64,000 nucleotides of DNA from Amphiscolops sp. MND2022 (taxonomy: Eukaryota), in the NCBI GenBank assembly GCA_964187785.1, contig OZ076409.1, forward strand, positions 58,220,001-58,284,000. Reading direction: 5' to 3'. Under the pieces are notes generated by a model. The model did not search any database. It saw nothing but the letters and a program-made list of their open reading frames with translations, and was not told the DNA's origin. Made by a program: the position numbers and the translations under genes. Of the stretch, positions 9,307 through 36,611 are shown piece by piece; position 1 is the stretch's first letter, and every line of letters starts with the position of its first letter.

Positions 9307-9354
9307 TCTATTCTCAATTTATTCCATGTCAAAGTATTTCCTCAATTTTTATAA

Positions 9355-10783: not shown

Positions 10784-10971
10784 ACTGTTTTATAGTTTTC
10801 ATTTGTATTTATTACTGTTCTATTGAGTAACTAATTTCATTGATTGATGTGCTGTACGTTAGAAATTCAACTGTTGGTGAATAGCAAAAAAATTTTAGAA
10901 AATAGTTAAATTAAGGTTCACAGACAATTTAAATAGGAGTTTATGAAGAAAGTTTACAAAACCGTCACACA

Positions 10972-12610: not shown

Positions 12611-12614
12611 TATT

Positions 12615-12992
12615 CTAGGTAACGTTTTTAAAAAAATCGTCCCGACTGCGTTGTTTCTGAGCTTTCTGTTTAATGATTTTTTTCTTCAATCCTCTTTTTC
12701 TTCTCTGTTTCGACTTTCTCTTCACTCTTCCTCCTCCAAACTGTTTTTTTGCAGTGGCTTTAGCAGTACGCTTCACTGCTTTTTTGATAGAAGCTTTTCC
12801 CTTGATAACTTGATCGAGTTCAGGAATCGCCGATTCTATGACATCTCTTCCTAACTTCTTCGCTACAGGTAAAACATACTTTCGTAAAATAGGAAAAGTT
12901 GTCCTAGCAATTGTTCCTGCAAAGGCTCCTAATCCTCTCCCACGTTGTCTCGGTACACCACGAAAATAACTCATTTTGTCAAAACCATCCAT
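12615..12992 (-). CDS. Basic core/DNA-condensing protein with protease-cleavage-like Gly motifs
   Basis: YFRG..RQRGRGLG and QFGGG motifs, amphipathic middle region, very Lys/Arg-rich tail. Located between the minor capsid gene and MCP. Confidence 0.75.
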   Translation of the reverse strand: MDGFDKMSYFRGVPRQRGRGLGAFAGTIARTTFPILRKYVLPVAKKLGRDVIESAIPELDQVIKGKASIKKAVKRTAKATAKKQFGGGRVKRKSKQRRKRGLKKKIIKQKAQKQRSRDDFFKNVT

Positions 12993-13026
12993 CCTGTAAG
13001 ATAATTAAAGAGAAAATGAAAATAAA

Positions 13027-13827: not shown

Positions 13828-13859
13828 CGACAAATGGTGAACTCCTTTTGTAGTCAAAT

Positions 13860-14807
13860 TTATCTCGAGATATGTTTAGAAAGTTCGTGATGATAAAATT
13901 TACCTAAAATTTTCTCGCCTTCCAAATCTTCCAGCTCGTACGTAGGAACAGGTTGTCTGGTTGAAAGATTGATTATTCGAAAGAGTTCATCTGTGAACTG
14001 AGGTTTGTAACCTTTGGAAAAAGAAGTAGTAACTTTAGCTATTCTAACAAAATCCCCTTTCCGGAACGGTGGTGTCTTTTCACTGAAGTTCACTTGTCTA
14101 TACAAAACTTTCAGATAGTCAGAATTGGTAACCTTGTTTGGAGCGAGTCCTGTTGATCTGTTGATCCTCGAATTCAAACAGTCAACAAGGTTCGGTAGAT
14201 TACGGAAATAATTATAGTTCCCACTTTCCTCCAGATGCTTGTAAATTATTGTTTTCAACGACCTTATAGCCCGTTCAGCAAAACTAGCTTTCGTTTCGCT
14301 AAAAGTGTGATACACATTTATTCCAGCATCTTCACAAAAGGATCGAAAGTCCCCGAAAAACTCTTTCCCTCTGTCAATCCATAATCGTTTCGGAATTACA
14401 AAGTTGTTCGAATTAGAACACAATTTGATAAAAGCCATTTTGGTTGATTCACTAGATTTGTTCTTCATAGGTTCAACCCTTATAAAGCGTGAAAACACGT
14501 CAACACAAACCATTAGGAATTTTGTGTGAGAATTCCATTGGGATAATTTATCAACTTGTGCCAGATCTAAACACCATATGTCATCAATGAACCTGGCAAA
14601 AACATGTAGTCTAGGAAATTTCCGGATTCGATTTTTGTATTTGGTGTATGACGCTTTACTATCAAGAAATTGTTTGACTTTCGTGCGTGAGAGACCACTA
14701 AGTCTAACTAAATTTGATATTGAACCGAACGCTGCCGGTCCGTTCCGGTATAATTTTGTAAGTTTGAGTCTTTCAGAAAGAGAAAGTGATCCAACTGTCA
14801 TCATCAC
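13860..14807 (-). CDS. Retroviral-like DDE integrase
   Basis: WCLDL (D), WIDRGKEF (D), AERAIRSLK (E). C-terminal GDFVRI..F.KGY..FTDELF..FY..EL. No chromodomain is evident. Confidence 0.96.
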   Translation of the reverse strand: MMMTVGSLSLSERLKLTKLYRNGPAAFGSISNLVRLSGLSRTKVKQFLDSKASYTKYKNRIRKFPRLHVFARFIDDIWCLDLAQVDKLSQWNSHTKFLMVCVDVFSRFIRVEPMKNKSSESTKMAFIKLCSNSNNFVIPKRLWIDRGKEFFGDFRSFCEDAGINVYHTFSETKASFAERAIRSLKTIIYKHLEESGNYNYFRNLPNLVDCLNSRINRSTGLAPNKVTNSDYLKVLYRQVNFSEKTPPFRKGDFVRIAKVTTSFSKGYKPQFTDELFRIINLSTRQPVPTYELEDLEGEKILGKFYHHELSKHISR

Positions 14808-15297
14808 CAGTTAGAGCGGTACTGTTGGCAAGGTATGTTGATGGTAGCTTCAATTGTTGCAGAATGACAGAATATCTCGGGTTGAAATTAGCTGACTTAT
14901 GTCTCAAATCATAAACGAAGTCCCGAGCATTGACTTCTGTGTCTGTATTATTCACAACAATTGTGTTTCCATTAGAAAATTTGATCGACGGGTTGGAAAA
15001 CAGTTCTTCTAATATTTTCTTGGCCTTGGAATCTTTCTTGAAAACATCCAAGAGATACTCTTTAAGTTTGGACTGCTTATTAGAAGGTTGAACAATTCTA
15101 GTATCATTGGAAGTATCATTGGAAGGGGAGTGCTTTTTATTAGACTTGAGCGATTGTGGTAAGGAATTAAAGAAACTCATTCTTTCGTTGGTAGATTCTG
15201 TTTGTACATCTATAGGTGATGAAAGGTCTGTCTGAAAATTGGTTTTCCCTGCTTTCCATAAATGAAGAGGAATCAAAACAAATTTATTATTTTCCAT
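14773..15297 (-). CDS. Polinton hypothetical protein (174 aa)
   Basis: N-terminal KFVLIP. Overlaps both neighbouring ORFs in the compact minus-strand gene run. Confidence 0.75.
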   Translation of the reverse strand: MENNKFVLIPLHLWKAGKTNFQTDLSSPIDVQTESTNERMSFFNSLPQSLKSNKKHSPSNDTSNDTRIVQPSNKQSKLKEYLLDVFKKDSKAKKILEELFSNPSIKFSNGNTIVVNNTDTEVNARDFVYDLRHKSANFNPRYSVILQQLKLPSTYLANSTALTGDDDSWITFSF

Positions 15298-15613
15298 TGT
15301 CGAAAAGATGTTGAAATTTATCTAAAACAGCTTGTGCAATGAATCTGAATAGTATAATTCCTTTATCACAAGCCAAAAGGAATCGACGTTGTTTCAAACT
15401 AGTCTTTTTAGATATCAATTGTTTAATGATTTGCTTCAAGGGAATCAATTTGATCTTGCTCGCAACTTTCAGGTTTCCATGGACTAGGTTTCTACAACAT
15501 TCGCAGAGAAATCTGACAAAATCTTTCGAACAAAGTTTCAGGAAACTTTTCTGTAAATCTTTACTGGAGTCGAGGAGAAGCTTTAGAGTAAAGTAATCCA
15601 GTTTTTTGATCAT
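15287..15613 (-). CDS. Small basic Polinton protein (ECxxNxxxGN type)
   Basis: FLCECCRNLVHGNL..KLI..K.SLKQRR motif. Located directly downstream of the ATPase. Confidence 0.75.
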   Translation of the reverse strand: MIKKLDYFTLKLLLDSSKDLQKSFLKLCSKDFVRFLCECCRNLVHGNLKVASKIKLIPLKQIIKQLISKKTSLKQRRFLLACDKGIILFRFIAQAVLDKFQHLFDNGK

Positions 15614-16265
15614 TTATTTCTGTTACTCGCGACCTACTGTTTGGTAAATAGAAAACGGTTGGAAATGAAGTGATATCTGAACAAAATCTTAGTGGATCGG
15701 GTGTCTTTGGTGTTAAATCTATCAAAATATGACCATAAGGTTTGGAGGTTGCATCTGAATACCACTGTTTTAGGTCAGATCCCAGACCTAACTGCTTCCC
15801 AAGAACATTAATCTGCTGTACATCTCTTGGTGACTTGAATAAAATGATGTGAGTGTTTTGTAACTCAGTGTCGCGACCAGTAGAAGCTTTGTGAAAAAGG
15901 TTGTGTTTAACATAAATACAGTTCAAATTTCTATGTCTTCCAGCAGTGGCGAGTTTCTCGAACTTCTTGGAACGTGAAATTTCGTCACAAGAATCATCGA
16001 AAATTAATAAGTACTTTGTTCCATCATTAGGTAAGTTATCAATGAAGTCGAAATCTAAGCTACCGATGAATTCAATGTTCTCTATGTCTCGCTGCATCCG
16101 TATATACAAGTTCTGGAAGAATTGATAAAAATAGAAAATCTTATCAAATTTGGGAACGAAAGTTCCTGCTTTTAGCATCTGAAATATTAGGTGACTTTTC
16201 CCTGAAGCAGATGGTCCAACCAAGGACATGAACACTCTATCTTCCGTGGAAATTAACTTATTCAT
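15561..16265 (-). CDS. FtsK/A32-like genome packaging ATPase
   Basis: Walker A GPSASGKS, Walker B LLIFDD, AGRH motif, ILFKSPRD. Likely start is the ATG at 16265. Confidence 0.95.
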   Translation of the reverse strand: MNKLISTEDRVFMSLVGPSASGKSHLIFQMLKAGTFVPKFDKIFYFYQFFQNLYIRMQRDIENIEFIGSLDFDFIDNLPNDGTKYLLIFDDSCDEISRSKKFEKLATAGRHRNLNCIYVKHNLFHKASTGRDTELQNTHIILFKSPRDVQQINVLGKQLGLGSDLKQWYSDATSKPYGHILIDLTPKTPDPLRFCSDITSFPTVFYLPNSRSRVTEINDQKTGLLYSKASPRLQ

Positions 16266-16267
16266 AT

Positions 16268-16531
16268 CTAAGGACGTGGATTCGGAAGTATGTACCCGAC
16301 TACACTTGATAAAATAGCTACCCAAACGGTTGTTTCTTCACAACTTGAGGAGAGTAGAATACTGACGACAGAAGTAACAATTAATATAAGAACAACACTG
16401 CTTTGAATAATGAATAGGCTTGCTGATCTCGAACACTTACGTCCGCACACGTTCCAAGGTTGACGCTCCTCGTTATTATCGTCGAAAATTATCTCTTTTG
16501 TATGTACCACTGGGTTATTGGAATTTTGCAT
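16268..16531 (-). CDS. Small two-transmembrane protein (87 aa)
   Basis: Two hydrophobic helices (LFIIQSSVVLILIVTSVVSILL; VWVAILSSVVGYIL) ending GYILPNP. ATG at 16531. Confidence 0.75.
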   Translation of the reverse strand: MQNSNNPVVHTKEIIFDDNNEERQPWNVCGRKCSRSASLFIIQSSVVLILIVTSVVSILLSSSCEETTVWVAILSSVVGYILPNPRP

Positions 16532-16578
16532 ATCTAGGAACGACTGTATGATAACATTAGTTGTCAAAGTAATGACTT

Positions 16579-16989
16579 TCAAACTCGAATTGTTTCGAAA
16601 AGTGATGGTAAGAAAAACTTCAAGTATAGACAATAGGAGATTCCCGTTAAATGTCCTAGGAAGCAGAAGTTGGGAAACTTGTTATCAAATCTGAATACAT
16701 AACAATACCCTGGTCCTACATTCAATTCCCTTTTCATGAAGCCCGAGGCATCATGTAAAACTGCATGAAGTCGAAAAACTTTTGAGAAAGATAGAACACG
16801 ATCAAGAGGTGAATCGTCAATACCTATAATACCTCCGAAAGGGGACTGTTCATCTATTTGCAACAGATTTATTTCCGGATCAAGTGATTTGCATGCTGCT
16901 AAAAAATAATTCTTTCTTCTGGTGTTCCTACTGAAACTGTAATCATTCGATATTTCCTTTTCCAGTTCGTTGATAAGCTTTACATCCAT
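16579..16989 (-). CDS. Phospholipase A2-like protein (putative entry factor)
   Basis: GGIIG..LDR..RLHAVLHDA..GPGYCY. The HD dyad context resembles viral PLA2 domains. Confidence 0.6.
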   Translation of the reverse strand: MDVKLINELEKEISNDYSFSRNTRRKNYFLAACKSLDPEINLLQIDEQSPFGGIIGIDDSPLDRVLSFSKVFRLHAVLHDASGFMKRELNVGPGYCYVFRFDNKFPNFCFLGHLTGISYCLYLKFFLPSLFETIRV

Positions 16990-17175
16990 TTTTTATAGCA
17001 ACGTTCAGATGTGAATATCTTTCACTTGTATTGGTAAGAAAAATTCAGAATAGGATCTCAATTTTAACTGGTTGTGATCAACTGAAGATCTGGGAGAAAA
17101 AACTTGAAATGGAACAGCAAACAATGAATTACAATGGAAACAATAAATATATAAAATGAATCATTCAACAAAAAT

Positions 17176-18045
17176 TCACATAAACAGAGAAGGAAGAGAG
17201 ACAGACGTAGTCAGTTTCTTATTCAATGCTAGTGTTTCCCTGACGAATGTTTCCATCAGCTCCACTTTAGAATTCAGACACTTGGATACTTCTCCCACTT
17301 TCATATTGATACATCCTTTCCTGACGAAATTGTCCTCTGTGTTGACTCGTGTGTATAACTTCAATTGAATATAGGAGCGGTAGAAGTTTTCTTTGTCATA
17401 GACAGTCATTGAAGCACAAATCTTTCGTCTCGCTGTTTCACAAAGTTCCCAAAATTTAGCACAACTTTTGGAATCTTCTAATGGCGTGGGGAAATTCAAA
17501 TAAGGATTCTCAGCAGTATAGGACGTAACAATGATTTCATTCGAGTTTTCCTCAAACAAATTTCGAGCTTCCTGCAAAACCTCATCGAGTGATGATAGCA
17601 CTCTCCTCATTTCCCAGGTGGAGAGAATCAGAAGCTGATGAAACTTCATTTGTCCCATAAATTCTTTATAGATTTTAATATGTATCCAATTACTGGTTGG
17701 ATGTTTTATTTCAGTGGCAGGAATAGAAATTCTTAAAGTTCTTTCGGGTATACAAGAAAAGTCCCAGCATTTAGTCGAAGATTGTGCATCTGCAAGAAAA
17801 CCAGTTTGTCGGTACTTATCCAGAACTGATTTCCCAAAAGATAAAGACTTGGAAGTCTGAGGTGCCACCGCAAGCGTGCCGAAGTCTAAAGTCTCCTCTG
17901 GTCCAATATCCACATAACTTGTGAACAAGTTGGTAGAGAAATTGGGAGATTGATGTGGAGTTGGACAAAGTTCAGATTGTTCCATTTTTCCTTTGCTGGT
18001 TCGAGGATAATCGTTCGATTTTTCAGAAACTATTTTTCGTTTCAT
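17176..18045 (-). CDS. Protein with two PC4-like (ssDNA-binding) repeats
   Basis: Two similar segments: LRISI...WIHIKIY...LILSTWEM and RKICASM...YIQLKLY...KGCINMKVGEV. First ATG at 18045. Confidence 0.6.
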   Translation of the reverse strand: MKRKIVSEKSNDYPRTSKGKMEQSELCPTPHQSPNFSTNLFTSYVDIGPEETLDFGTLAVAPQTSKSLSFGKSVLDKYRQTGFLADAQSSTKCWDFSCIPERTLRISIPATEIKHPTSNWIHIKIYKEFMGQMKFHQLLILSTWEMRRVLSSLDEVLQEARNLFEENSNEIIVTSYTAENPYLNFPTPLEDSKSCAKFWELCETARRKICASMTVYDKENFYRSYIQLKLYTRVNTEDNFVRKGCINMKVGEVSKCLNSKVELMETFVRETLALNKKLTTSVSLPSLFM

Positions 18046-18204
18046 TACTTGCAAGGTACAGAACAAGCTAGTAATTGTGTTCGGGCAAAATTAAATGAGA
18101 ATTTTTCGTTGCACTGCCAAAAGGGAAGTGATCCAATGAAATTGCTCTAATTTGAATCGTTTCAATTCGTTAGTACAATTGTTTTCATTCCTAAGTACTT
18201 TAAT

Positions 18205-18390
18205 CCGTCCCCGCGGCGGCAACAGCTGTCACCGGCGGCGGCGGCGGCGTTCCGTTGGCGGCGGCGGCGGCGGCCGTTGAACTCCTCCTTTTCTGTAAAT
18301 TTCCAAATAAGGGATTTCTAGTCCTATAACCAATCTTAATACATGTACTCCTCACTTTATACCCCTCTGTTCAGCTCACTCTTTACTACT
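18205..18390 (-). repeat. Polinton right terminal region (presumed TIR) with GGC-rich tract
   Basis: (GGC)n tracts at ~18213-18275. The minus strand reads AGTAGTAAAGAGTGAGCTG from 18390. A TATAAA lies on the minus strand near 18360. Confidence 0.7.
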
Positions 18391-18486
18391 TTGGTATGAA
18401 CTTCATTCTGCAATGATTTTTAGAAGCTTCGTTGAAATGACTGGGATTTTCAATTCATACATAATTTAAAACGCATGGCCATTTAT

Positions 18487-18963
18487 TAATATTTCTGCTT
18501 TAGCAGGAATGTTATTGTAACCTCAAAGTTGGTCCTTTTTTTTTCAGTCGTCAAATTTCGTCCTACTGAATAATTCAGATATTTTGTTCGGCAGTGAGTG
18601 TAAGCGTGGGAAAGCTGCCGACAACAATTCAATTCTAGTGCGATAGAACGAGCGAGTGGTAATTATCCATTCGTATGCTGACGTCATTGAGATGAAGCGA
18701 ATGAGTGTTAATTATTCGTTCGTTGAGAGCTTCGCCTGCATTCAAATGCGAATGCGAAACTTCGTCTACGCTTAGTTATATTTTCTTTAGTCCGAGAAGA
18801 ATTAAAGGCGGTGCAAACTTGTACAGTGATTAATTGTGCTCTAAGTAATGATTAAACAGGAGTGTATTGGTATTCCAGATATGATTCTTTTATTAATGAT
18901 TTTTTGTTTTAAAAAAATAAAGATTAAAGCAGAAATAGTACTGAGCCCCGGAGGGGCCTATTT
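18487..18963 (+). mobile_element. HINE/DINE-1-like non-autonomous Helentron, family A, copy 1
   Basis: SubTIRs TATTTCTGCTTTA (18490) and TAAAGCAGAAATA (18925). 3' hairpin GCCCC-GGA-GGGGC followed by CTATTTT. No TSD. Three near-identical copies in the window. Confidence 0.85.
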
Positions 18964-20591
18964 TGATTTCTGTTGTTATCTCAATTTGCGTTTCTTTTTG
19001 TGTACTGGACTATGAAATCGTGACATCTCAAATTCAGTTTCGATTCAAAGTTGTTTTTATTTTTACCATTTTCCTGTGATTGACATTTTGCCAATATAAT
19101 TGTGATGAAAATTTCCGCTAAAATGCTGATATTTTGAGCCCATCGTAATCTTGAATGCGTTGTTGCCATTGATTGCTGCACCAGGCAAGGCTACTCATGG
19201 CGTGATTTTTATCTACGTTTCTCTACTTGCACTGTTGCACAAGATCGGTTTCAATTTAATTTCCATCCTTTTACATCCATCCTTGAAATCATATATTGAT
19301 ACTGAATGCCTTCAATTTTGAGGTGCTGTCATGTCTTTTCGACCGTAGAAGGGGGTTTTGAACTGAATGTGGGCGGTCTTTGAATGCATTAGAAAAAGTA
19401 GAAAAGGAAGATAGATACAGAAACAGTTTTTTGTTACCATGCAATTTTTGGTTATGCAATTTAAATTGCGAAACGTCTGGAAATTCGAAGCGAGCTCAGC
19501 GTTCAACTGAAAATCTTTCTCGATTTTTTTTCTGTAAAATGTCGGTTGTGTTGAATTTGTATACTGCAAATGTTTTTGTGTATTTTCGATTTTTCTCGAC
19601 GTGGACCATAATAAATTCGTATAATTTTTGCTTTGAAGACGGTTTTTATTTGAAGGTTTTAATGTCAAAATAAGAGGGTTAAGGATGTCTAATTGAGACA
19701 GTTGCTTTGGAAACAGACAATCTTTAATTAGACGTGTTCAACTTGGCATTAGTTTTTACAACCGTAGTTTTAAGTTTGTGTCATAATCGTGGAAAATCTT
19801 TGTTGTATTTTGATTGCTGTAAATTTATCGTTCTTCAGAATTCTTTAGATTGCGGTAATTTGATCCATGGCAATAATTTTTCTTTGGAATCTATTTAAAT
19901 ACGAAGAAAGCTACTTGAATGTCTTTCGACTGGTGTTCTCAATTCCTAAACCTATTACATGGCCTTGTTTTGATTCCAATTTCACAATCAATACAAATTG
20001 TTTTCCAAGAATCAAAGTCTTTCTGCAATTTCCTTGAAGCTTTTGTTTTTCCCGAATAATGTATTGATTCGTTTGGTATATGACAGCTATTAACGCGTCT
20101 TCAATCCTCAAATCTGATATCCGTCGAAAGGCAAAATTATTCAAGTTTTTCCCCATCAAACTGCCTCATCTGTAAGACACTGTACGCCCTATTTCACATC
20201 GATTGCAATACAGAATCAACATGCAAAAATAAATAAAGACGTAATGAAACTAAAAACAGTTTCAAGCTTACCCCAGTAACTAATGAATCACTCCTAGCAG
20301 TCTTGTCAGTATCTTGAATCTTTTTTGTGCAAAACAAAAACTAGAAATTCTTAGAGCTTAACTAAAAGGTTTACAGCATTCGTTGCTTTTTGCTGTTTTT
20401 CCTGACTGTAGACTTGACAAGACCAAGCCAAAGCCTACTCAAACAGACATTTTAGCTGTCAAACCAATGCAAATGAGTCACCTGTGTGTCATGGCGAATC
20501 TGTGGTGCAGAATGATTGGTTTAAATGGTGACCAATCACAGAATCAACTATTATTTAATGAAAATAAAACCGATATTAAAACAGGTCTTAC

Positions 20592-20719
20592 CTCTTCCCA
20601 TTGACTCGCGTACCGTAGGAGTCGAGTAACCCTCAGAAGTTTGAGAAGGGTGAGCAATTTCGCAAGTCTCAAAATTTTCAACGTTCTTGAAGCACTGGCG
20701 TATGTAGCACTTCGGTTTC
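20592..20719 (-). CDS. HCN: HCN channel exon (S4), duplicate copy
   Basis: RTLKILRLAKLLTLLKLLRVTRLLRYASQWEE, bounded by cag and GTAAGA. Confidence 0.88.
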
Positions 20720-21135
20720 CTGAAACCAAATCGAAAAGGGATTTTTGATAAACAGATCAAGGTAGAAGCTTATACGAAAATAGTTTTTGCAAGTCTCGCT
20801 TCCAGAAACTCAGTTTTGCTTATCGAAACTGAAGAACTAACAAACAGTATGTGAGAATTTAATTACCCAAGAATGTATGAGAGTGTTTTGGAAAAGCATT
20901 TTCTGACTGAAAAAAAAATGCACCGAAGCACAAAAAGGCCAAAGGGTACTTACTTACTCCCTTTCAGTTTTTCATAGTTTTACCGTACCTCCCAAACAAA
21001 AATGGACCAAAGGGTTCCCCCTTAGTTTTTAAAGCTTTAATTGGGGCGCCGGCTTTAGACGTTCTCTTCTTGTTTGCCAGTGATTCTCCCTTTTTTCATA
21101 ACGCAAATTAAAAAGACGAATCAACAGTGTGTAAC

Positions 21136-21276
21136 CTGATTTGTTGTACAGTTTGAGAATCATGTCGAATGGCAAGGAAGAAAGGAGATCAGTGATGAAC
21201 CATGTTTTGAAATACTTCCTCAGAATTAGGTTGGGTTGTAAGATTATTTGAGTCGTCGTGTTGTTGGCCGGTATAC
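21136..21276 (-). CDS. HCN: HCN channel exon (S2-S3 linker, S3), duplicate copy
   Basis: GIP...IILQP..I.RKYFKTWFITDLLSSLPFD, with AG/GT boundaries. Confidence 0.88.
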
Positions 21277-21909
21277 CTGAAATAAAGAGATTCAGTTTCG
21301 TTGATTGGCATCGATTTTTCCCTTCCAGCATTCATGTACTGAGGTTCAAACTACCCTTATAAATACGTTGCTGTAGTTTTCTATTTTAGTGCTCTGTCAA
21401 AAAAGTGGAGTCAATTTGATAGCAGAAAGCTTCCAAAATGTCTGCAAATCAAATTCATTATGAAGAGGCAGAATAGACGTTTTTATGAGCTTGCTTATTT
21501 ATTAAAAAATATATGTATGCTTTGTAATTGGTCACAAGAAAACATTGATATCCAGAGCATTGTCATTTTTTTGAGTTAATGAAATATTCAGTTTAATTTC
21601 CATAATGAAAAGCTCCAAGTTTGAAAATTTGTAAGGAAAAGTTGTAAGGCTATACGGCAGTCTGGTTTTGAGATTTTGGTAAGTTTCCGTTGTTGACTCT
21701 GTCTTGTGTAAAATCTGGGCATCAGCTTCTTGCAGCAAGAAGTGTCCATACTTCAAGTAAACCGAAACGTGGAATAATTTTCAATAAAGCGAAAATAGTG
21801 ACTCTCCAGATGAAATGGACGAGTTTCAGTGCATCTGACATCTTTGATGTGTGCCTTTGATCATCATTTAAAAAATGGAAGCATCATGCATAGAATGACC
21901 ATGATTAAC

Positions 21910-22076
21910 CTGTCCGGAAGTTGAGGAGGAGGTCCATGATGAATACTAGGTCGTTAACGAGGTTGAAGAAGAACCAGCCCTCGTTAGTGTATCTGTCGTC
22001 GAAGAATGCGATGGCTATGGGAAGCATAACCAAGTTGGAAATTAGCAGAATCAGCATCAGAAAGTCCCAAATTATC
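21910..22076 (-). CDS. HCN: HCN channel exon (S1-S2), duplicate copy
   Basis: RIIWDFLMLILLISNLVMLPIAIAFF...WFFFNLVNDLVFIMDLLLNFRT, with AG/GT boundaries. Confidence 0.88.
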
Positions 22077-22942
22077 CTGAACATACGAGATCCAATTTAT
22101 CTAATTATCAGATTTAGTCTCAACTGCCTAGTGCTATAGTTGAAAAAAGAATAGCTTTTTGCCCTTCAAATTCAAGCATGTTTTTTTTCCGCCCATATTT
22201 CGCATGGAAAAGGAAAATCACAGCCGCGTTTTTTTTTAAAAGTTGCCATGTTCTTCCTTATAACTCAACTACCAAAAATTAAGGTTCATAGCATATGAAT
22301 TGTAAAGCTATTTGAACTTTTTTTAAAAAAAAGTTCCTCAAATGAAAATGCTCCTAAAAAGTTGCAAAATGCCCAAAAATGCAAATATTTATCCAGTTTT
22401 CAACTATTTTGGGCAACTTTGGTACAATTTTTGACTCTTTTCGTGAGTATAAATACTCAGAGTTCGACGACAAAGCAATTAGCTGCTTAGCATACTTTTC
22501 AGTAGAAAAATTCTAAGCTTTTTCGAAAAGTGTCACAATAGAGCTTCCACAAAGTTAAATGACGGAAAAAATAATTTCTCATATATTTTTGGAGAATTTG
22601 AACGTTTATTCAAAGAAGTGTCTATAGCACTAAAGAGTCAATTTTTAGTCTTGGGCTTTTTGTACGAACGTTTCCGTTTACATATGTTTATTGGCTTTGC
22701 TCGAGCCCTAGAAAAATGTTGTCGCTGGAATAGTTCCAAGCGAAAATACTCGATGCTCGATGGGCGCCTTTTTAGGTACAAAAGTTGAAGTCGATGCGAG
22801 GCATTTTAGCCCATGTTTTTGATGAAAAAGAAACTTTTACAGTTACTATTTTTTAAAATCCACAACGCTGGGGAGCAAGAGTTTGTGTATTCGAATCCCG
22901 CGCTGGTCTACATTTTTTGTTTGAAAAACTAGACAAGATCAA

Positions 22943-23697
22943 GCAAGACGGGAACGTCTAAAAGTCGGCGATTTGTCTAAGGCTCAAAAAACGCAGTTTT
23001 TAAAATATCCTCAAGGCGTTTTCATGAAAAACTCGGAAAGAGTGCCTTTCGTGCTCAAAAAACGCTTCAGAACATCGGATATAGCGTGCTGAGAGAAATA
23101 CGTGGCTTTTTCCGATCATACGCCTCCTCCTCAGTAAAACGCAAATCACTTCGGATATAACGTAAAAAGTTCGGATATATATAGTGTGCTGGGACAAATG
23201 GGAGCACTTGTTTTCGAACCTCCGCCTTCTCCTTAGCAAAACGCAATATTGTTCGGATATAACTTCAAAACTTTGTAACGTAATTTGAATAGTAATGAAA
23301 CAAATGGTTTCTGGGTATATGTCGAGAAAACCTAATTTCAGACGAAAAATGAGAATTCTGAAACAGTCTCATAGTGTCGAAAAATGTAAAATGGGAGACC
23401 TTTTGGGCTTTTCGAAACTCCAGGTTGCAAAATACCAAAAAATTGAAGGAGACCCTTTGGAGACATTTAGAAAATTTTTCGAAAAGTCTCATAGCCGAAA
23501 AAAATTGAAAGGTGGACCCTTTAGTCTCGTCCGGTTTTGTGTTACGCTCAAAAAGGAACTACAACGACCGCTGTGTTCCCGCCAAACTGAGTAAGCTTTG
23601 TACTAAAAAGTACATATATTGTGAGCTCTGTGGTCTGACGAACAAAAAACTGTCATTGTAATAGTCGGGCACTCTCAGAAAAAGCGCAGACTAAAAA
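22943..23697 (-). mobile_element. HINE family B copy (duplicated at ~28960-29714)
   Basis: AAGACGGGAACGTCT hairpin plus AGTCGGCG at the left end; GCGCAGACTAAAAA at the right end. Confidence 0.7.
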
Positions 23698-24502
23698 CTG
23701 GACAAGGCCCTTTTTCGGTATCTGTTCACTCTTCGTGTTTTCACTCAAGAAAATATGTTTTTCGAGATTATTGTGTTTTTTGGCAATGTGCGACTTTTTA
23801 TTATTTAAAAAATGTTCTTCCCTTTCCTGTTTTTTTAATGAGCGCTTTTTTTAATGGGCCAGACTATTACGACTAGTTTTTTTCGTAAAACCACAGAATG
23901 TATGGTCTATTTCACTTCAGGTCGTCCCTCCAGATATTTTTGCCACTCTGAAAGTTATGAAATTTTCCCAAAAGCCACACTGAGTTTTTGAATGACTTTT
24001 TTGAGCCTTAAGCGGTGCGCTGGCTTTAGACGAAACCGTCGTATGTTTTAATTTGGCCTAGAAGTGAGAATGCAAAGTTTGGAAGCAGGTCGTCGTGGGT
24101 TCGAATCCCACACGGATTAAAACTTTTTCGAATGCTTCAGTTTTCTCAAACGTGGATTTTCTAAAATTTCAGTTAGGGAAAACTGTTTTTAGAGTTTCAA
24201 GGGTATCTCGGATATCTTATTTCAGAGGTGTCTCATTTTTGAGTTTTTTCTCTCATGAGTTTTTTTTTGTTTTTTTCAGTTGACAATATCACTCTGAGTG
24301 GTCCACTTTTACAATTTTTGTTCATCTTTCATATTTGTTCATCTTCCATCTTCGACCCAGCCGGAGAGCTTGGGTTCGAATCCCGCACTAAACCATAAAT
24401 TTTTTAATGCTTCCAAAAGTACAGGTGAGACCAAAGGGTCCCCCCTTTGGGTTTTTTTTCGGCACTATGCGACTTTTTTTCGAAAACTTTCGAAATTTAT
24501 CA

Positions 24503-24980
24503 AATATTTCTGCTTTAGCAGGAATGTTATTGTAACCTCAAAGTTGGTCCTTTTTTTTTTTCAGTCGTCAAATTTCGTCCTACTGAATAATTCAGATATT
24601 TTGTTCGGCAGTGAGTGTAAGCGTGGGAAAGCTGCCGACAACAATTCAATTCTAGTGCGATAGAACGAGCGAGTGGTAATTATCCATTCGTATGCTGACG
24701 TCATTGAGATGAAGCGAATGAGTGTTAATTATTCGTTCGTTGAGAGCTTCGCCTGCATTCAAATGCGAATGCGAAACTTCGTCTACGCTTAGTTATATTT
24801 TCTTTAGTCCGAGAAGAATTAAAGGCGGTGTAAACTTGTACAGTGATTAATTGTGCTCTAAGTAATGATTAAACAGGAGTGTATTGGTATTCCAGATATG
24901 ATTCTTTTATTAATGATTTTTTGTTTTAAAAAAATAAAGATTAAAGCAGAAATAGTACTGAGCCCCGGAGGGGCCTATTT
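24503..24980 (+). mobile_element. HINE family A copy 2, at the duplication junction
   Basis: Same sequence as 18487-18963 apart from T-run length and one substitution. Confidence 0.85.
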
Positions 24981-26608
24981 TGATTTCTGTTGTTATCTCA
25001 ATTTGCGTTTCTTTTTGTGTACTGGACTATGAAATCGTGACATCTCAAATTCAGTTTCGATTCAAAGTTGTTTTTATTTTTACCATTTTCCTGTGATTGA
25101 CATTTTGCCAATATAATTGTGATGAAAATTTCCGCTAAAATGCTGATATTTTGAGCCCATCGTAATCTTGAATGCGTTGTTGCCATTGATTGCTGCACCA
25201 GGCAAGGCTACTCATGGCGTGATTTTTATCTACGTTTCTCTACTTGCACTGTTGCACAAGATCGGTTTCAATTTAATTTCCATCCTTTTACATCCATCCT
25301 TGAAATCATATATTGATACTGAATGCCTTCAATTTTGAGGTGCTGTCATGTCTTTTCGACCGTAGAAGGGGGTTTTGAACTGAATGTGGGCGGTCTTTGA
25401 ATGCATTAGAAAAAGTAGAAAAGGAAGATAGATACAGAAACAGTTTTTTGTTACCATGCAATTTTTGGTTATGCAATTTAAATTGCGAAACGTCTGGAAA
25501 TTCGAAGCGAGCTCAGCGTTCAACTGAAAATCTTTCTCGATTTTTTTTCTGTAAAATGTCGGTTGTGTTGAATTTGTATACTGCAAATGTTTTTGTGTAT
25601 TTTCGATTTTTCTCGACGTGGACCATAATAAATTCGTATAATTTTTGCTTTGAAGACGGTTTTTATTTGAAGGTTTTAATGTCAAAATAAGAGGGTTAAG
25701 GATGTCTAATTGAGACAGTTGCTTTGGAAACAGACAATCTTTAATTAGACGTGTTCAACTTGGCATTAGTTTTTACAACCGTAGTTTTAAGTTTGTGTCA
25801 TAATCGTGGAAAATCTTTGTTGTATTTTGATTGCTGTAAATTTATCGTTCTTCAGAATTCTTTAGATTGCGGTAATTTGATCCATGGCAATAATTTTTCT
25901 TTGGAATCTATTTAAATACGAAGAAAGCTACTTGAATGTCTTTCGACTGGTGTTCTCAATTCCTAAACCTATTACATGGCCTTGTTTTGATTCCAATTTC
26001 ACAATCAATACAAATTGTTTTCCAAGAATCAAAGTCTTTCTGCAATTTCCTTGAAGCTTTTGTTTTTCCCGAATAATGTATTGATTCGTTTGGTATATGA
26101 CAGCTATTAACGCGTCTTCAATCCTCAAATCTGATATCCGTCGAAAGGCAAAATTATTCAAGTTTTTCCCCATCAAACTGCCTCATCTGTAAGACACTGT
26201 ACGCCCTATTTCACATCGATTGCAATACAGAATCAACATGCAAAAATAAATAAAGACGTAATGAAACTAAAAACAGTTTCAAGCTTACCCCAGTAACTAA
26301 TGAATCACTCCTAGCAGTCTTGTCAGTATCTTGAATCTTTTTTGTGCAAAACAAAAACTAGAAATTCTTAGAGCTTAACTAAAAGGTTTACAGCATTCGT
26401 TGCTTTTTGCTGTTTTTCCTGACTGTAGACTTGACAAGACCAAGCCAAAGCCTACTCAAACAGACATTTTAGCTGTCAAACCAATGCAAATGAGTCACCT
26501 GTGTGTCATGGCGAATCTGTGGTGCAGAATGATTGGTTTAAATGGTGACCAATCACAGAATCAACTATTATTTAATGAAAATAAAACCGATATTAAAACA
26601 GGTCTTAC

Positions 26609-26736
26609 CTCTTCCCATTGACTCGCGTACCGTAGGAGTCGAGTAACCCTCAGAAGTTTGAGAAGGGTGAGCAATTTCGCAAGTCTCAAAATTTTCAACG
26701 TTCTTGAAGCACTGGCGTATGTAGCACTTCGGTTTC
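26609..26736 (-). CDS. HCN: HCN channel exon (S4)
   Basis: S4 ending QWEE|GTAAGA; phase 1 to phase 0. Confidence 0.9.
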
Positions 26737-27152
26737 CTGAAACCAAATCGAAAAGGGATTTTTGATAAACAGATCAAGGTAGAAGCTTATACGAAAATAG
26801 TTTTTGCAAGTCTCGCTTCCAGAAACTCAGTTTTGCTTATCGAAACTGAAGAACTAACAAACAGTATGTGAGAATTTAATTACCCAAGAATGTATGAGAG
26901 TGTTTTGGAAAAGCATTTTCTGACTGAAAAAAAAATGCACCGAAGCACAAAAAGGCCAAAGGGTACTTACTTACTCCCTTTCAGTTTTTCATAGTTTTAC
27001 CGTACCTCCCAAACAAAAATGGACCAAAGGGTTCCCCCTTAGTTTTTAAAGCTTTAATTGGGGCGCCGGCTTTAGACGTTCTCTTCTTGTTTGCCAGTGA
27101 TTCTCCCTTTTTTCATAACGCAAATTAAAAAGACGAATCAACAGTGTGTAAC

Positions 27153-27293
27153 CTGATTTGTTGTACAGTTTGAGAATCATGTCGAATGGCAAGGAAGAAA
27201 GGAGATCAGTGATGAACCATGTTTTGAAATACTTCCTCAGAATTAGGTTGGGTTGTAAGATTATTTGAGTCGTCGTGTTGTTGGCCGGTATAC
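27153..27293 (-). CDS. HCN: HCN channel exon (S2-S3 linker, S3)
   Basis: YFKTWFITDLLSSLPFD; phase 1 to phase 1. Confidence 0.9.
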
Positions 27294-27926
27294 CTGAAAT
27301 AAAGAGATTCAGTTTCGTTGATTGGCATCGATTTTTCCCTTCCAGCATTCATGTACTGAGGTTCAAACTACCCTTATAAATACGTTGCTGTAGTTTTCTA
27401 TTTTAGTGCTCTGTCAAAAAAGTGGAGTCAATTTGATAGCAGAAAGCTTCCAAAATGTCTGCAAATCAAATTCATTATGAAGAGGCAGAATAGACGTTTT
27501 TATGAGCTTGCTTATTTATTAAAAAATATATGTATGCTTTGTAATTGGTCACAAGAAAACATTGATATCCAGAGCATTGTCATTTTTTTGAGTTAATGAA
27601 ATATTCAGTTTAATTTCCATAATGAAAAGCTCCAAGTTTGAAAATTTGTAAGGAAAAGTTGTAAGGCTATACGGCAGTCTGGTTTTGAGATTTTGGTAAG
27701 TTTCCGTTGTTGACTCTGTCTTGTGTAAAATCTGGGCATCAGCTTCTTGCAGCAAGAAGTGTCCATACTTCAAGTAAACCGAAACGTGGAATAATTTTCA
27801 ATAAAGCGAAAATAGTGACTCTCCAGATGAAATGGACGAGTTTCAGTGCATCTGACATCTTTGATGTGTGCCTTTGATCATCATTTAAAAAATGGAAGCA
27901 TCATGCATAGAATGACCATGATTAAC

Positions 27927-28093
27927 CTGTCCGGAAGTTGAGGAGGAGGTCCATGATGAATACTAGGTCGTTAACGAGGTTGAAGAAGAACCAGCCCTCG
28001 TTAGTGTATCTGTCGTCGAAGAATGCGATGGCTATGGGAAGCATAACCAAGTTGGAAATTAGCAGAATCAGCATCAGAAAGTCCCAAATTATC
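27927..28093 (-). CDS. HCN: HCN channel exon (S1-S2)
   Basis: WD..ML..NL...P..I.FF...DL.LNFRTG; phase 2 to phase 1. Confidence 0.9.
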
Positions 28094-30289
28094 CTGAACA
28101 TACGAGATCCAATTTATCTAATTATCAGATTTAGTCTCAACTGCCTAGTGCTATAGTTGAAAAAAGAATAGCTTTTTGCCCTTCAAATTCAAGCATGTTT
28201 TTTTTCCGCCCATATTTCGCATGGAAAAGGAAAATCACAGCCGCGTTTTTTTTTAAAAGTTGCCATGTTCTTCCTTATAACTCAACTACCAAAAATTAAG
28301 GTTCATAGCATATGAATTGTAAAGCTATTTGAACTTTTTTTAAAAAAAAGTTCCTCAAATGAAAATGCTCCTAAAAAGTTGCAAAATGCCCAAAAATGCA
28401 AATATTTATCCAGTTTTCAACTATTTTGGGCAACTTTGGTACAATTTTTGACTCTTTTCGTGAGTATAAATACTCAGAGTTCGACGACAAAGCAATTAGC
28501 TGCTTAGCATACTTTTCAGTAGAAAAATTCTAAGCTTTTTCGAAAAGTGTCACAATAGAGCTTCCACAAAGTTAAATGACGGAAAAAATAATTTCTCATA
28601 TATTTTTGGAGAATTTGAACGTTTATTCAAAGAAGTGTCTATAGCACTAAAGAGTCAATTTTTAGTCTTGGGCTTTTTGTACGAACGTTTCCGTTTACAT
28701 ATGTTTATTGGCTTTGCTCGAGCCCTAGAAAAATGTTGTCGCTGGAATAGTTCCAAGCGAAAATACTCGATGCTCGATGGGCGCCTTTTTAGGTACAAAA
28801 GTTGAAGTCGATGCGAGGCATTTTAGCCCATGTTTTTGATGAAAAAGAAACTTTTACAGTTACTATTTTTTAAAATCCACAACGCTGGGGAGCAAGAGTT
28901 TGTGTATTCGAATCCCGCGCTGGTCTACATTTTTTGTTTGAAAAACTAGACAAGATCAAGCAAGACGGGAACGTCTAAAAGTCGGCGATTTGTCTAAGGC
29001 TCAAAAAACGCAGTTTTTAAAATATCCTCAAGGCGTTTTCATGAAAAACTCGGAAAGAGTGCCTTTCGTGCTCAAAAAACGCTTCAGAACATCGGATATA
29101 GCGTGCTGAGAGAAATACGTGGCTTTTTCCGATCATACGCCTCCTCCTCAGTAAAACGCAAATCACTTCGGATATAACGTAAAAAGTTCGGATATATATA
29201 GTGTGCTGGGACAAATGGGAGCACTTGTTTTCGAACCTCCGCCTTCTCCTTAGCAAAACGCAATATTGTTCGGATATAACTTCAAAACTTTGTAACGTAA
29301 TTTGAATAGTAATGAAACAAATGGTTTCTGGGTATATGTCGAGAAAACCTAATTTCAGACGAAAAATGAGAATTCTGAAACAGTCTCATAGTGTCGAAAA
29401 ATGTAAAATGGGAGACCTTTTGGGCTTTTCGAAACTCCAGGTTGCAAAATACCAAAAAATTGAAGGAGACCCTTTGGAGACATTTAGAAAATTTTTCGAA
29501 AAGTCTCATAGCCGAAAAAAATTGAAAGGTGGACCCTTTAGTCTCGTCCGGTTTTGTGTTACGCTCAAAAAGGAACTACAACGACCGCTGTGTTCCCGCC
29601 AAACTGAGTAAGCTTTGTACTAAAAAGTACATATATTGTGAGCTCTGTGGTCTGACGAACAAAAAACTGTCATTGTAATAGTCGGGCACTCTCAGAAAAA
29701 GCGCAGACTAAAAACTGGACAAGGCCCTTTTTCGGTATCTGTTCACTCTTCGTGTTTTCACTCAAGAAAATATGTTTTTCGAGATTATTGTGTTTTTTGG
29801 CAATGTGCGACTTTTTATTATTTAAAAAATGTTCTTCCCTTTCCTGTTTTTTTAATGAGCGCTTTTTTTAATGGGCCAGACTATTACGACTAGTTTTTTT
29901 CGTAAAACCACAGAATGTATGGTCTATTTCACTTCAGGTCGTCCCTCCAGATATTTTTGCCACTCTGAAAGTTATGAAATTTTCCCAAAAGCCACACTGA
30001 GTTTTTGAATGACTTTTTTGAGCCTTAAGCGGTGCGCTGGCTTTAGACGAAACCGTCGTATGTTTTAATTTGGCCTAGAAGCGAGAATGCAAAGTTTGGA
30101 AGCAGGTCGTCGTGGGTTCGAATCCCACACGGATTAAAACTTTTTCGAATGCTTCAGTTTTCTCAAACGTGGATTTTCTAAAATTTCAGTTAGGGAAAAC
30201 TGTTTTTAGAGTTTCAAGGGTATCTCGGATATCTTATTTCAGAGGTGTCTCATTTTTGAGTTTTTTCTCTCATGAGTTTTTTTTTGTTT

Positions 30290-30753
30290 TTTTCAGTTGA
30301 GAATCTCACTCTGAGTGGTCCACTTTTACAATTTTTGTTCATCTTTCATATTTGTTCATCTTCCATCTTCGACCCAGCCGGAGAGCTTGGGTTCGAATCC
30401 CGCACTAAACCATAAATTTTTTAATGCTTCCAAAAGTACAGGTGAGACCAAAGGGTCCCCCCTTTGGGTTTTTTTTCGGCACTATGCGACTTTTTTTCGA
30501 AAACTTTCGAAATTTATCAAAGGGTACCCCCTTGAATTTTTTTGAAGTTTTCGGTTTGTAGAAAACGTTGAATGAGCCTGAATGGCCTCTTTTTGAGTTT
30601 TTCGGCATTGTGCGACCTAAAAAATACTTTTCGAAAAAAAATCAAAATTTTTTTTGAAAAAAAAATTTTTTTCCAAATTTTTCCAATAGTTGTTCCTTGA
30701 ATATTTTTGAGCCTAAGATATGGCGCCGACTTGGGACGTTCCCGTCTTGTTTT
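30290..30753 (+). mobile_element. HINE family B copy, 5'-truncated
   Basis: Ends GCCTAAGATATGGCGCCGACTTGGGACGTTCCCGTCTTGTTTT. Closely matches the inverted copy at 42676-43175. Confidence 0.75.
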
Positions 30754-31076: not shown

Positions 31077-31262
31077 CTGAATATACTGAAAGGATGAATG
31101 ATCCATGGTGCTTCCTGTATGCATCTTTGACGTTCTCTTTTGACTGCTTTTTTGCTTCCGAATATCCGGATTGTGAATCTGTTGATGGTGGGATGAATTA
31201 GGGACTGGATTCCGTGAATCATTTTGTGGCTACAAGATTCCATTTTAGATGACAACCATGAC
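31077..31262 (-). CDS. HCN: HCN channel exon (N-terminal HCN domain)
   Basis: LIHPTINRFTIRIFGSKKAVKRERQR...WIIHPFSIFR matches the HCN pre-S1 signature. Splices in frame to 28093. Confidence 0.92.
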
Positions 31263-35329: not shown

Positions 35330-35806
35330 TAATATTTCTGCTTTAGCAGGAATGTTATTGTAACCTCAAAGTTGGTCCTTTTTTTTTCAGTCGTCAAATT
35401 TCGTCCTACTGAATAATTCAGATATTTTGTTCGGCAGTGAGTGTAAGCGTGGGAAAGCTGCCGACAACAATTCAATTCTAGTGCGATAGAACGAGCGAGT
35501 GGTAATTATCCATTCGTATGCTGACGTCATTGAGATGAAGCGAATGAGTGTTAATTATTCGTTCGTTGAGAGCTTCGCCTGCATTCAAATGCGAATGCGA
35601 AACTTCGTCTACGCTTAGTTATATTTTCTTTAGTCCGAGAAGAATTAAAGGCGGTGTAAACTTGTACAGTGATTAATTGTGCTCTAAGTAATGATTAAAC
35701 AGGAGTGTATTGGTATTCCAGATATGATTCTTTTATTAATGATTTTTTGTTTTAAAAAAATAAAGATTAAAGCAGAAATAGTACTGAGCCCCGGAGGGGC
35801 CTATTT
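35330..35806 (+). mobile_element. HINE family A copy 3 (stand-alone, defines element ends)
   Basis: Identity to 18487-18963 stops at both ends in T-runs; no TSD. Confidence 0.87.
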
Positions 35807-36611
35807 TTAATTTCAGAGCTCACCTTCATTTTGTTTGCTATCGTTTCGATCAACAAAGGTGTATCTATACAAACATCTTTTGTTTTTTTTTTTTTTAGTT
35901 ACAGACCTTACTGTGGCCGCAGTATTTCCAAATCATAACTGTCTTTCTCGAGTGGTCGGTATATATAGTACTGTCGACTGCAAGGAACTGTACGTTATCG
36001 TGATTACCATAACCCAACTTTGTTGAATTTTTTTGACAGAAGCCCAAGCGTGAAAGACATCATACTTCAAGAATCTAATTAGTGTCAAAGCAAACATGCG
36101 ATTTGCGTCAAACGCCGGATTTGATATACTTATGTGACCTCTTGTAAATCAATACGACCACTTCTTGTTAATTTCAAAGGACCACAAAAGAGGAAACTCG
36201 TCCTAAATTATTCATAGTTTGCCGCCTCCGTTTTTGATTGGGTATTTTTTAACATCGTAAGTGCAAATTGAAACTGGAAAAGGAATTTTAGGAAGAAAGT
36301 TCAGATGCAGAACATTGATTAAAAAACTTTCTCTGACGTTTTTTCTCAACATTGATATTACTAAGTGATTTCGGGAATAACGTTCATTGACTTAGAAGTT
36401 GAATTAAATCATAGCCAAATTTTTTTAAGCTTTCATTTTTTTTCATTTCGAGGTTTGCGGTAATATTCTTTGAAACTTGACGAGGATGATTGCACGTCAA
36501 GAGCTGGCTGAAACATTGTTAACAAAAACTATTTTTGTGCCATCCCGTTTGTCCTTTCGTATAAAATATATCCTTGTCTGTCAGTCGAAAATCTGAGCAA
36601 ATTTGAAATGA

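Follow-up and report, generated by a model that had tools for sequence, protein, structure and literature searches.

How does a tandem duplication come to begin at the tip of a transposable element? The question is raised by a stretch of 64,000 nt of Amphiscolops sp. MND2022 (GCA_964187785.1, contig OZ076409.1, positions 58,220,001-58,284,000 of the forward strand; hereafter the window), in which about 6 kb of an HCN channel gene is present twice in direct succession, starting at the left end of a HINE element. The original prediction, made from the letters of the window, took this arrangement for the tail-to-head junction of a read-through transposition, with unequal crossover between HINE copies on different alleles as the alternative.

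Results

The HINE family and its target rule

The ends of the HINE were defined from 52 young copies and from paralogous empty sites. The element adds five T in total and is best read as T-AATATTTC...CCTA-TTTT; the empty sites place its insertion after [A/T]TT[T/A]T, without target duplication. In 51/51 canonical copies the left flank is TT and the right flank TTTT. A T precedes AATATTTC in 622 copies and is missing from 6, among which the window copy is the only young one; TT stands before AATA in 619/622 copies, and of these only 7 are without T at -5 and 24 at -4. The subTIR, 13-bp TATTTCTGCTTTA, starts at base 4, and about 30 nt separate the end of its perfect complement from the 3' end, a spacing slightly shorter than the 38-60 bp of the HINEs in PMC4067079. 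A 3' hairpin (GCCCC-GGA-GGGGC) and a 5' hairpin at the subTIR both fold with DNA parameters, the latter with 12-13 bp, G-T pairs included (top strand -4.4 kcal/mol, bottom strand -2.8). With its subTIRs, 3' stem-loop, 5' palindrome and T-rich insertion without target-site duplication, the family has the same anatomy as the non-autonomous HINE/DINE-1 Helentrons (PMC4067079).

Anatomy of the window duplication

Alignment of the copies bore out the predicted tandem duplication (Table 1). They are 99.87% identical across 6027 alignment columns, and their differences are exactly those originally listed: four substitutions (18814C/24831T, 24065T/30082C, 24284C/30301G, 24288A/30305C) and one indel, T9 versus T11, inside the HINE. 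The claimed start at the HINE 5' end was right and can be refined to base 2 of the 478-bp element, the junction copy lacking the leading T as predicted; the run past the 3' hairpin, put at about 5.5 kb, measures 5538 bp from the element's 3' end (18964). AA is common to both breakpoints (ATCA-AA-TATTTC), leaving a 2-nt slide. The site does break the target rule, as claimed, with the refinement that a target-like half-site lies 2 nt to the left of the join. ATTTAT also precedes the original HINE, giving a microhomeology between the two breakpoints that 1.1% of 2000 random sites score equally well. The multicopy repeat in which the break had been placed is indeed broken centrally, and its left half is copied at 24256-24502. 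The window is N-free, its junction is present once in the assembly, and derived bases are found in both copies. A search of the assembly found no further copy of the unit or of its distal segment elsewhere; the copies are adjacent only. The duplication is confirmed as real at the level of the assembled sequence.

Table 1. Positions of the features discussed, in window coordinates unless a chromosome is given.
Feature	Position	Strand	Details
Duplicated unit, copy 1	18488..24502	+	6015 bp; breakpoints slidable 2 nt rightward
Duplicated unit, copy 2	24503..30519	+	6017 bp
Junction	24503..24504	+	AA microhomology; first T of HINE absent
Junction HINE copy	24503..24981	+	bases 2-478; consensus at position 327; T11 run
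Upstream original young HINE	18487..18964	+	478 bp; canonical target TTTAT|T; private 18814C
Independent solo HINE	35330..35807	+	same young subfamily; served as reference
Distal breakpoint site TTTAT|CAAA	30513..30521	+	target-like motif 2 nt left of join
Unrelated multicopy repeat	30273..30751	.	contains distal breakpoint
HCN exon A, copy 1	21910..22076	-	167 nt, phase 2 to 1; Ion_trans start, S1-S2
HCN exon B, copy 1	21136..21276	-	141 nt, phase 1 to 1; S3 region
HCN exon C, copy 1	20592..20719	-	128 nt, phase 1 to 0; S4
HCN exon A, copy 2	27927..28093	-	identical to copy 1
HCN exon B, copy 2	27153..27293	-	identical to copy 1
HCN exon C, copy 2	26609..26736	-	identical to copy 1
Single-copy HCN exon upstream of duplicated block	31077..31262	-	ends phase 2; acceptor edge approximate
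C3 duplication	C3:38722969		unit 4146 bp, 1 difference; starts at HINE base 1
C7 duplication	C7:20409159	-	unit 4627 bp, 1 difference; starts at HINE base 15

The channel exons match XP_075259017.1 (HCN3-like; PF08412, PF00520, PF00027) at 60-98%; the matches reach from 31237 to a point 18.9 kb beyond the window's left edge and run from the Ion_trans voltage sensor to pore, C-linker and cyclic-nucleotide-binding exons. Three exons are present twice, as had been predicted; what the prediction missed is that the block A+B+C is out of frame. It comprises 436 nt (3n+1), so default splicing would frameshift the channel, the expected six-exon product meeting a stop 30 codons into the second exon A, and the allele is predicted to be null or weak unless the three exons are skipped. 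With its block out of frame, the duplication has probably harmed the HCN gene rather than given it something new.

Recurrence in the genome

Further HINE-anchored duplications had been proposed as a genome-wide check, and two more independent ones with the same anatomy were found, on C3 and C7. Screens targeting HINE left ends with an odd flank gave 11 matches, 3 young and 8 older. All three young copies (window, C3, C7) are junctions of tip-anchored tandem duplications; none of the eight older copies is. The three duplications lie on three chromosomes, all belong to the youngest HINE subfamily, and their units, starting at most 15 nt from the HINE tip, include 3' flank of 3.7-5.5 kb. The chance expectation for tip-anchored duplications was about 0.04, with a probability of about 7e-4 for at least two further cases, figures that use a background rate shown to be set too high. 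Anchoring at the HINE left tip is recurrent, far above chance.

Other classes of HINE copy were also screened. Breakpoints lie at the HINE tip rather than in its interior: among the shared 3' flank matches listed (100 of 385), none of six other pairs was an adjacent duplication starting in the HINE. One near-identical shared-flank pair, outside these six, lies 32 Mb apart. Close same-strand HINE pairs, considered as possible duplications, were independent insertions in seven regions and in 14 copies from wider pairs. One close-pair region holds a 426-bp partial head-to-tail copy. For 31 matches with mildly odd targets, no junction was found among the 23 examined with upstream sequence (20 kb for 11, 10 kb for 11, 4.2 kb for 1); the other 8 were judged from earlier comparisons. 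Background tandem duplications had units of 3.4 and 4.0 kb, two of four background candidates having been discarded as not simple tandem duplications. The one on C6 carries an 8-nt templated insert at its junction; its candidacy as a duplication at another element's tip was dropped, the start lying inside a longer repeat.

Joins and copy differences

The joins lose 0 (C3), 1 (window) and 14 nt (C7) from the HINE tip, the first HINE base being kept in one of the three (C3). Microhomology is AA in the window and TAA at C3; C7 is blunt, with 4/6 matching bases beside the join. Units of a few kb with 1-3 nt of microhomology or homeology are as found in duplications of the MMBIR or TMEJ type. None of the junctions (0/3) combines an intact left end with a canonical target, versus TT in 619/622 copies. 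The C7 donor HINE lacks its last 60 bp, hairpin included, and the C7 break lies within the left-end hairpin's loop, as if the strand had been single-stranded. The losses and micro(home)ology are unlike the precise junctions that Helraiser makes in vitro (PMC5876387), and host repair therefore probably closed the joins. Read-through as originally inferred thus survives in part: the association with the HINE left end holds up and recurs, and one donor is without its 3' hairpin, but a clean tail-to-head ligation by transposase does not fit these joins.

Of the six substitutions, five are found at most 450 bp from a breakpoint (p ~7e-4, post hoc), a clustering at the edges that gene conversion in the middle of the unit could also produce. 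The upstream HINE has a private substitution that is not in the junction copy in 2/3 cases (window position 327, C3 ~92), against a background of 3/47 (Fisher p=0.023, post hoc); in a short dimer on C2, the private change sits in the downstream copy. Private substitutions and the T-run difference are equally compatible with errors of donor re-synthesis and with a second HINE molecule. The distal sites were also considered as cryptic terminators, an idea rejected on the window and C3 sites: an AT-rich hairpin precedes the window site, and there is none near the C3 site.

A candidate autonomous Helentron

One of ten long Helitron-type ORFs checked, on C13, has the 3' end of the HINE family (34/36 nt); identity is about 70% over the last 60 nt, and the subTIR match is only 9 bp. 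Across a tandem array, 26.7 kb upstream of the ORF, lies a 97-bp match of 100% to the HINE 5' end, and we infer that ORF and match may belong to one element. The ORF has OTU, DUF6570, Helitron_like_N and PIF1 domains and a weak Exo_endo_phos match (E=9e-4, below the cut-off); no solved structure matching its endonuclease-like tail was found. It points toward the hairpin end.

Discussion

The best explanation, which we hold at a little less than even confidence, is a nick at the HINE left tip by a Helentron transposase, followed by run-on copying and in-place, microhomology-guided end-joining by the host. The Rep domain would nick the top strand at T|TAATA and remain on the 5' end. Host synthesis from the 3'-OH would displace the old strand across the HINE and for a further 3.7-5.5 kb, until the fork stalled or was cut at a distal site. 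The displaced arm, trimmed by 0-14 nt, would then be joined to the new 3' end, producing the order distal site|HINE tip and tandem copies. For Helraiser, transposition begins at the left end, and about 11.7% of events read through, a share of at least 36% when there is no hairpin (PMC4778049). The polarity of the C13 ORF fits such a start, and the C7 donor, which has no hairpin, agrees with the read-through prediction. Against the explanation, unit sizes like those of the background duplications suggest that a generic host pathway sets the length.

Read-through, fork collapse at the nick and re-integration of a circle leave the same end product in an assembly. In the second of these, to which we give perhaps half the credence of run-on copying, the same nick occurs without read-through: a fork arriving from downstream runs off, and the HINE-tipped broken end re-invades or end-joins kilobases away (by MMBIR or polymerase theta), re-copying the interval. 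Such a collapse explains the tip anchoring, the loss of the unpaired terminal T in the window and the 2-3 nt of microhomology. A templated junction insert is a hallmark of polymerase theta, and the C6 background duplication has one. Nick-derived single-ended breaks also give microhomology-bearing tandem duplications of up to 6.9 kb, in wild-type mouse cells too (PMC12309385). However, collapse predicts neither the terminator-less C7 donor nor a break in the top-strand hairpin loop, each a single case, and the bottom-strand hairpin is the weaker one.

In the third, an improbable route, read-through frees a circle of 4-6 kb whose tail-to-head junction is aberrant, and homologous recombination then returns the circle to its own locus. 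About half of the Helraiser circles from cells had aberrant junctions (PMC5876387), and differences confined to the edges fit a long central heteroduplex between two alleles. The route nevertheless requires two rare steps, and circles should insert elsewhere too, at odds with the absence from the assembly of a dispersed copy of the window unit.

We regard as quite unlikely a two-step origin, with normal or abortive insertion of a second HINE molecule at the distal site and subsequent unequal crossover between it and the upstream copy. The junction copies do have the family consensus where the upstream copies have private changes, and T9 versus T11 and the target-like motif next to the window join favour a second HINE. 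Against this, all three junction sites are off the target rule and the C7 copy is without 14 nt; moreover, young solo insertions ending in this way, which ought to be much commoner than recombinants, were not found (0/3). Since ordinary insertions require a strict T-rich target, crossover between them, the alternative first put forward, is unlikely, and so is random misassembly.

About as unlikely is a fragile site without any transposase, in which the left-end hairpin stalls forks and ordinary template switching follows: the left end does fold, C7 broke in the loop and the window breakpoints are microhomeologous, but the hairpin is short and partly of G-T pairs, the eight older odd-ended copies share the same tip without a duplication junction, and all three events fall in the youngest subfamily. 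Very unlikely is an assembly artefact from mis-joined haplotypes, chimeric reads or an unrolled circle: the copies are 99.9% identical and the window duplication is known from the assembly alone, but one tip-specific anatomy recurs at three loci on three chromosomes, the junction is unique, both copies hold derived bases in N-free sequence, and long reads should span a 478-bp repeat.

Several known systems resemble a nick at the HINE tip with run-on copying. Thomas et al. (2014) suggested that DINE-1-linked gene duplications may stem from end bypass (PMC4067079). All three duplications start within 15 nt of the left terminus and carry 3' flank beyond the hairpin, as end bypass would have it, but the first base of the left end is kept in one of three and insertion at a new canonical target elsewhere was not seen. 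Yang et al. (2008) described DNAREP1-flanked new genes, screening dispersed duplicates, setting tandem ones aside and leaving the mechanism undecided between recombination and mobilisation (PMC2211543); the duplications here are tandem, very young, base-resolved and start at one end. Helraiser shares left-end initiation, hairpin read-through that rises without the hairpin, and aberrant junctions in cells (PMC4778049, PMC5876387). It is, however, an engineered, canonical Helitron1 whose products are new insertions elsewhere and circles, and whose transposase makes precise junctions in vitro (PMC5876387), whereas the duplications described here remain at their locus and have trimmed joins.

Tandem copies have been attributed to rolling-circle elements in ToxB-HLE (bioRxiv 10.1101/2025.11.13.688278), where both edges are fixed and the authors call their model unvalidated, and in the Helitron-paired KCS arrays of poplar (PMC13253262). 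Each is a single locus; here three unlinked loci have one fixed end and one that varies, and their elements come from a family of high copy number whose target rule is known. Ac/Ds reversed-ends transposition (PMC3744419; cf. PMC4270019) likewise starts a tandem duplication at an element end, but through a cut-and-paste DDE transposase, two nearby ends and an 8-bp target duplication; the duplications here involve one HUH-type end and no target duplication. The nick-induced duplications of BRCA1-deficient type (PMC12309385) are similar in their few-kb size, microhomology and proposed nick origin, and arose from engineered Cas9 nicks in mouse cells, where we propose a natural transposase site. 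In the literature searched, with most subscription papers outside reach, we found no report of recurrent HINE-left-tip tandem duplications; the available text of PMC7919458, PMC13286980 and PMC8277862 did not contain the same anatomy. Nor did the literature searched yield a Helentron transposition assay; hence the initiating end, and the flanking of duplicated genes by DINE-1/HINE, rest on analogy and association.

Three base-resolved young duplications from the same tip provide a natural footprint of the initiating end, and copies whose left flank violates the target rule offer a cheap genome screen. The end-bypass idea of Thomas et al. becomes testable in genomes with a recent HINE burst. 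We tentatively suggest that active Helentrons may act as site-specific one-ended re-replication origins: any non-autonomous copy could be nicked at its left tip and send a rolling fork past its terminator, leaving the downstream 4-6 kb tandemly duplicated in about 1 in 200 copies of a young family. If true, such firing would make tandem duplication of exons and genes a routine outcome, by a route separate from capture, and DINE-1-associated duplications would have a direct mechanism.

Results

Comparison of the window with itself gives a single long near-perfect direct repeat (table). Exact alignment of its copies shows four substitutions and a T-run that differs in length by 2 nt, all as listed in the original prediction. 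The anchoring that the prediction gave for the unit, at the left end of a HINE (a non-autonomous Helentron-type rolling-circle element of 478 bp), also holds, the left edge of copy 1 being base 2 of the element. The join reads ATCA-AA-TATTTC, with AA common to both sides, and the full junction occurs once in the 1.07-Gb assembly, in the window on contig C1. A target-like motif matching the left flank of the upstream (donor) HINE lies 2 nt from the join (1.1% by chance). Both copies have derived bases, copy 1 at 18814 (C) and 24288 (A) and copy 2 at 30301 (G).

Coordinates of features (C, contigs of the same assembly, G000; L, stretches elsewhere in it)
Feature	Position	Strand	Remarks
Duplication copy 1	window 18488-24502		exact alignment
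Duplication copy 2	window 24503-30519		exact alignment
Solo HINE	window 35330-35807
C3 duplication	C3:38722969		unit 4146 bp, 1 difference
C3 duplicated unit	G000:C3:38723450-38731263
C7 duplication	C7:20409159	minus	unit 4627 bp, 1 difference
C2 partial HINE pair	G000:C2:2200209-2201116 (L062:1210-2116)		bases 1-426, then full copy
C6 background duplication	G000:C6:1620634-1627493 (L049+L050+L263)		3434 bp, 99.9% identical
Candidate autonomous Helentron	G000:C13:25883430-25918644 (L127, L128, L173, L174)		35 kb
Clustered open frames	G000:C1:73.5-76.5 Mb
Maverick-like element	window 1-18391 + L090:9502-10000		~18.9 kb
Its right repeat	window 18198-18391
Its tandem arrays	window 1270-4380 and 9338-10017		~166-bp and ~112-bp units

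The three duplicated exons (A, B and C, on the minus strand) match HCN3-like XP_075259017.1 at 75-85%. Exons for the pore and the cyclic-nucleotide-binding region come next, with an open reading frame, at 4-19 kb beyond the left edge of the window. Assignment of the duplicated exons to S1-S4 rests on an Ion_trans match plus a charge pattern that we take to mark S4. The exon copies are identical, and each block (167+141+128 = 436 nt) is entered in phase 2 and left in phase 0. If all six exons are spliced, the frame is predicted to shift and to terminate 30 codons into exon A of the second block, whereas skipping of three is predicted to give a normal protein; because of this frameshift, the duplication allele is predicted to be null or weak. 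The intron after exon C holds an element bounded by terminal inverted repeats of 194 bp (98.5%). It encodes a polymerase B (ORF of 1413 aa), an integrase and an A32-type ATPase, from which gene set we take it to be Maverick/Polinton-like; tandem arrays lie within it, and its right repeat ends 96 bp before the duplication.

Three genome screens for HINE left ends violating the target rule gave 11 matches. In eight of them, all from older subfamilies (77-83% identity), no duplication junction was present within the 10-20 kb inspected per side. All three young odd ends are junctions of tip-anchored tandem duplications, namely that in the window and two more, on C3 and C7, which the genome-wide search proposed in the original prediction brought out. 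The C3 join is TTC-TAA-TATTTC, with the first T (base 1) kept; the C7 join has the tip minus 14 nt, a break within the left-hairpin loop, and its donor lacks the last 60 bp. What is duplicated on C3 is a segment of the pol region of an LTR retroelement rather than a host gene, with frames running by eye from reverse transcriptase to integrase-like. No duplication junction was seen at 31 mildly odd targets (23 inspected in flanking sequence), and no tip-anchored duplication at close or wide same-strand HINE pairs or at six other pairs with a common 3' flank (among 100 of 385 matches listed). A partial head-to-tail HINE pair on C2, with a private change in its downstream copy, has tip-anchored geometry and is possibly a short duplication from early termination; alternatively, it could be a nested insertion with a deletion.

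Unselected sequence totalling 931 kb contained four candidate recent duplications; at this rate, 0.04 tip-anchored duplications are expected by chance genome-wide (upper bound ~0.1), and the probability of two further tip cases is ~7e-4 at the point estimate. This estimate is conservative because only two of the four candidates were simple duplications. Tip-anchored units are similar in size to background duplications, one of which, on C6, has an 8-nt templated insertion at its junction. The screens require an exact match of 21-25 nt; more heavily trimmed tips escape them, as do junctions whose target is fully canonical, and three is therefore a lower bound. At the level of the assembly sequence, these tandem duplications are linked to the HINE tip.

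The HINE carries subterminal inverted repeats of 13 bp, has hairpins at both ends and inserts at T-rich targets without duplicating them, all features reported for the HINEs of PMC4067079 and HLE2 of PMC11417382. Comparison with empty sites gives five T added in total per insertion, which we read as one left and four right, as described for FoHeli1 (PMC5148889). Of 47 copies picked by position, 40 do not differ from the reference except in run lengths, which points to a very young burst. Targeting is strict: the first T is present in 622/628 left ends and the second in 619/622 of these, while T is missing at -5 in 7 and at -4 in 24 of the 619. Seven of 92 copies examined adjoin another family copy (L011, L015, L029, L063, L176, L214), and young HINEs often land in or directly behind older members because the HINE 3' end mimics the target. 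An older variant (L040-L043, L161) has both flanks common to five loci on different chromosomes, and so was nested in another repeat that later spread.

Among 10 long Helitron-type ORFs examined for a HINE terminus, one, on C13, has it. This ORF matches OTU, DUF6570, Helitron_like_N, PIF1 and, weakly, an endonuclease; it ends 1.75 kb before a terminus agreeing with the HINE 3' end in 34/36 nt, and at 26.7 kb upstream 97 bp agree perfectly with the HINE 5' end. Judged by the polarity of the ORF in this candidate partner, the duplication-anchoring end would be the left end; ORF orientation may invert among Helentron-type elements (PMC5148889, PMC4067079). The candidate element, with its HINE-identical left tip and family 3' end, contains a 17.5-kb array of ~219-bp units and a 2244-codon open frame with OTU, Rep, Pif1 and endonuclease-like domains. 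On C1, more than 12 clustered open frames, mostly ~2375 codons and nearly all on one strand, match Helitron_like_N.

Discussion

We consider it probable that a transposase started these events, by one of three routes. Our tentative preference is read-through copying from the transposase nick, joined in place by the host. Helraiser is nicked at its left end and its donor regenerated by synthesis (PMC4778049, PMC5876387); read-through of its hairpin is reported in ~11.7% of events, and in at least 36% without the hairpin (PMC4778049), and its junctions are precise in vitro while about half of the circles in cells are aberrant (PMC5876387). Run-on synthesis would give a forked molecule whose displaced arm starts at the HINE tip, and if this arm were then joined to the newly made 3' end at the point of fork arrest, the observed order of copies would result. 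The trimming of tips by 0, 1 and 14 nt and the microhomology at the joins point to host end-joining rather than clean strand transfer. The C7 loop break and the donor without a terminator, one case each, suit a displaced top strand. The original prediction of read-through transposition stands for the left-tip start and the carried 3' flank; the precise join and new target that define classical Helitron transduction are absent.

Collapse of a fork at the same nick would leave the same end product, and nick-induced microhomology duplications of up to 6.9 kb have been reported (PMC12309385); we regard this as a possible but rather unlikely route. Re-entry of a circle into its own locus by recombination, again with the same product, seems less likely still. 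A private substitution missing from the junction copy is present in the upstream HINE at two of the three loci (background 3/47; p=0.023, post hoc), and T-run lengths differ between the upstream and junction HINEs of the window; unequal crossover involving a second HINE molecule therefore keeps a small probability. The private changes could reflect such a molecule or error-prone donor re-synthesis. The three cases together have six substitutions, five of them no more than 450 bp from a breakpoint; repair errors, two alleles or mid-unit gene conversion could each explain this and the derived bases in both window copies. Crossover between normal HINE insertions, the alternative first proposed, does not fit, since none of the three junctions has a complete left end in a canonical target.

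Transposon-made tandem duplications are already known for Ac/Ds (PMC3744419), and Helitron-like tandem units have been proposed at single loci for ToxB-HLE (bioRxiv 10.1101/2025.11.13.688278) and poplar KCS arrays (PMC13253262). For duplicates linked to DINE-1, an origin by end bypass has been put forward (PMC4067079); the screen for these took in dispersed copies only (PMC2211543). In the open-access article texts searched, no earlier account appeared of tandem duplications arising repeatedly at the left tip of a HINE. Overall, the pathway that we infer works like Helitron end-bypass at its start and like microhomology-mediated tandem duplication at its finish.
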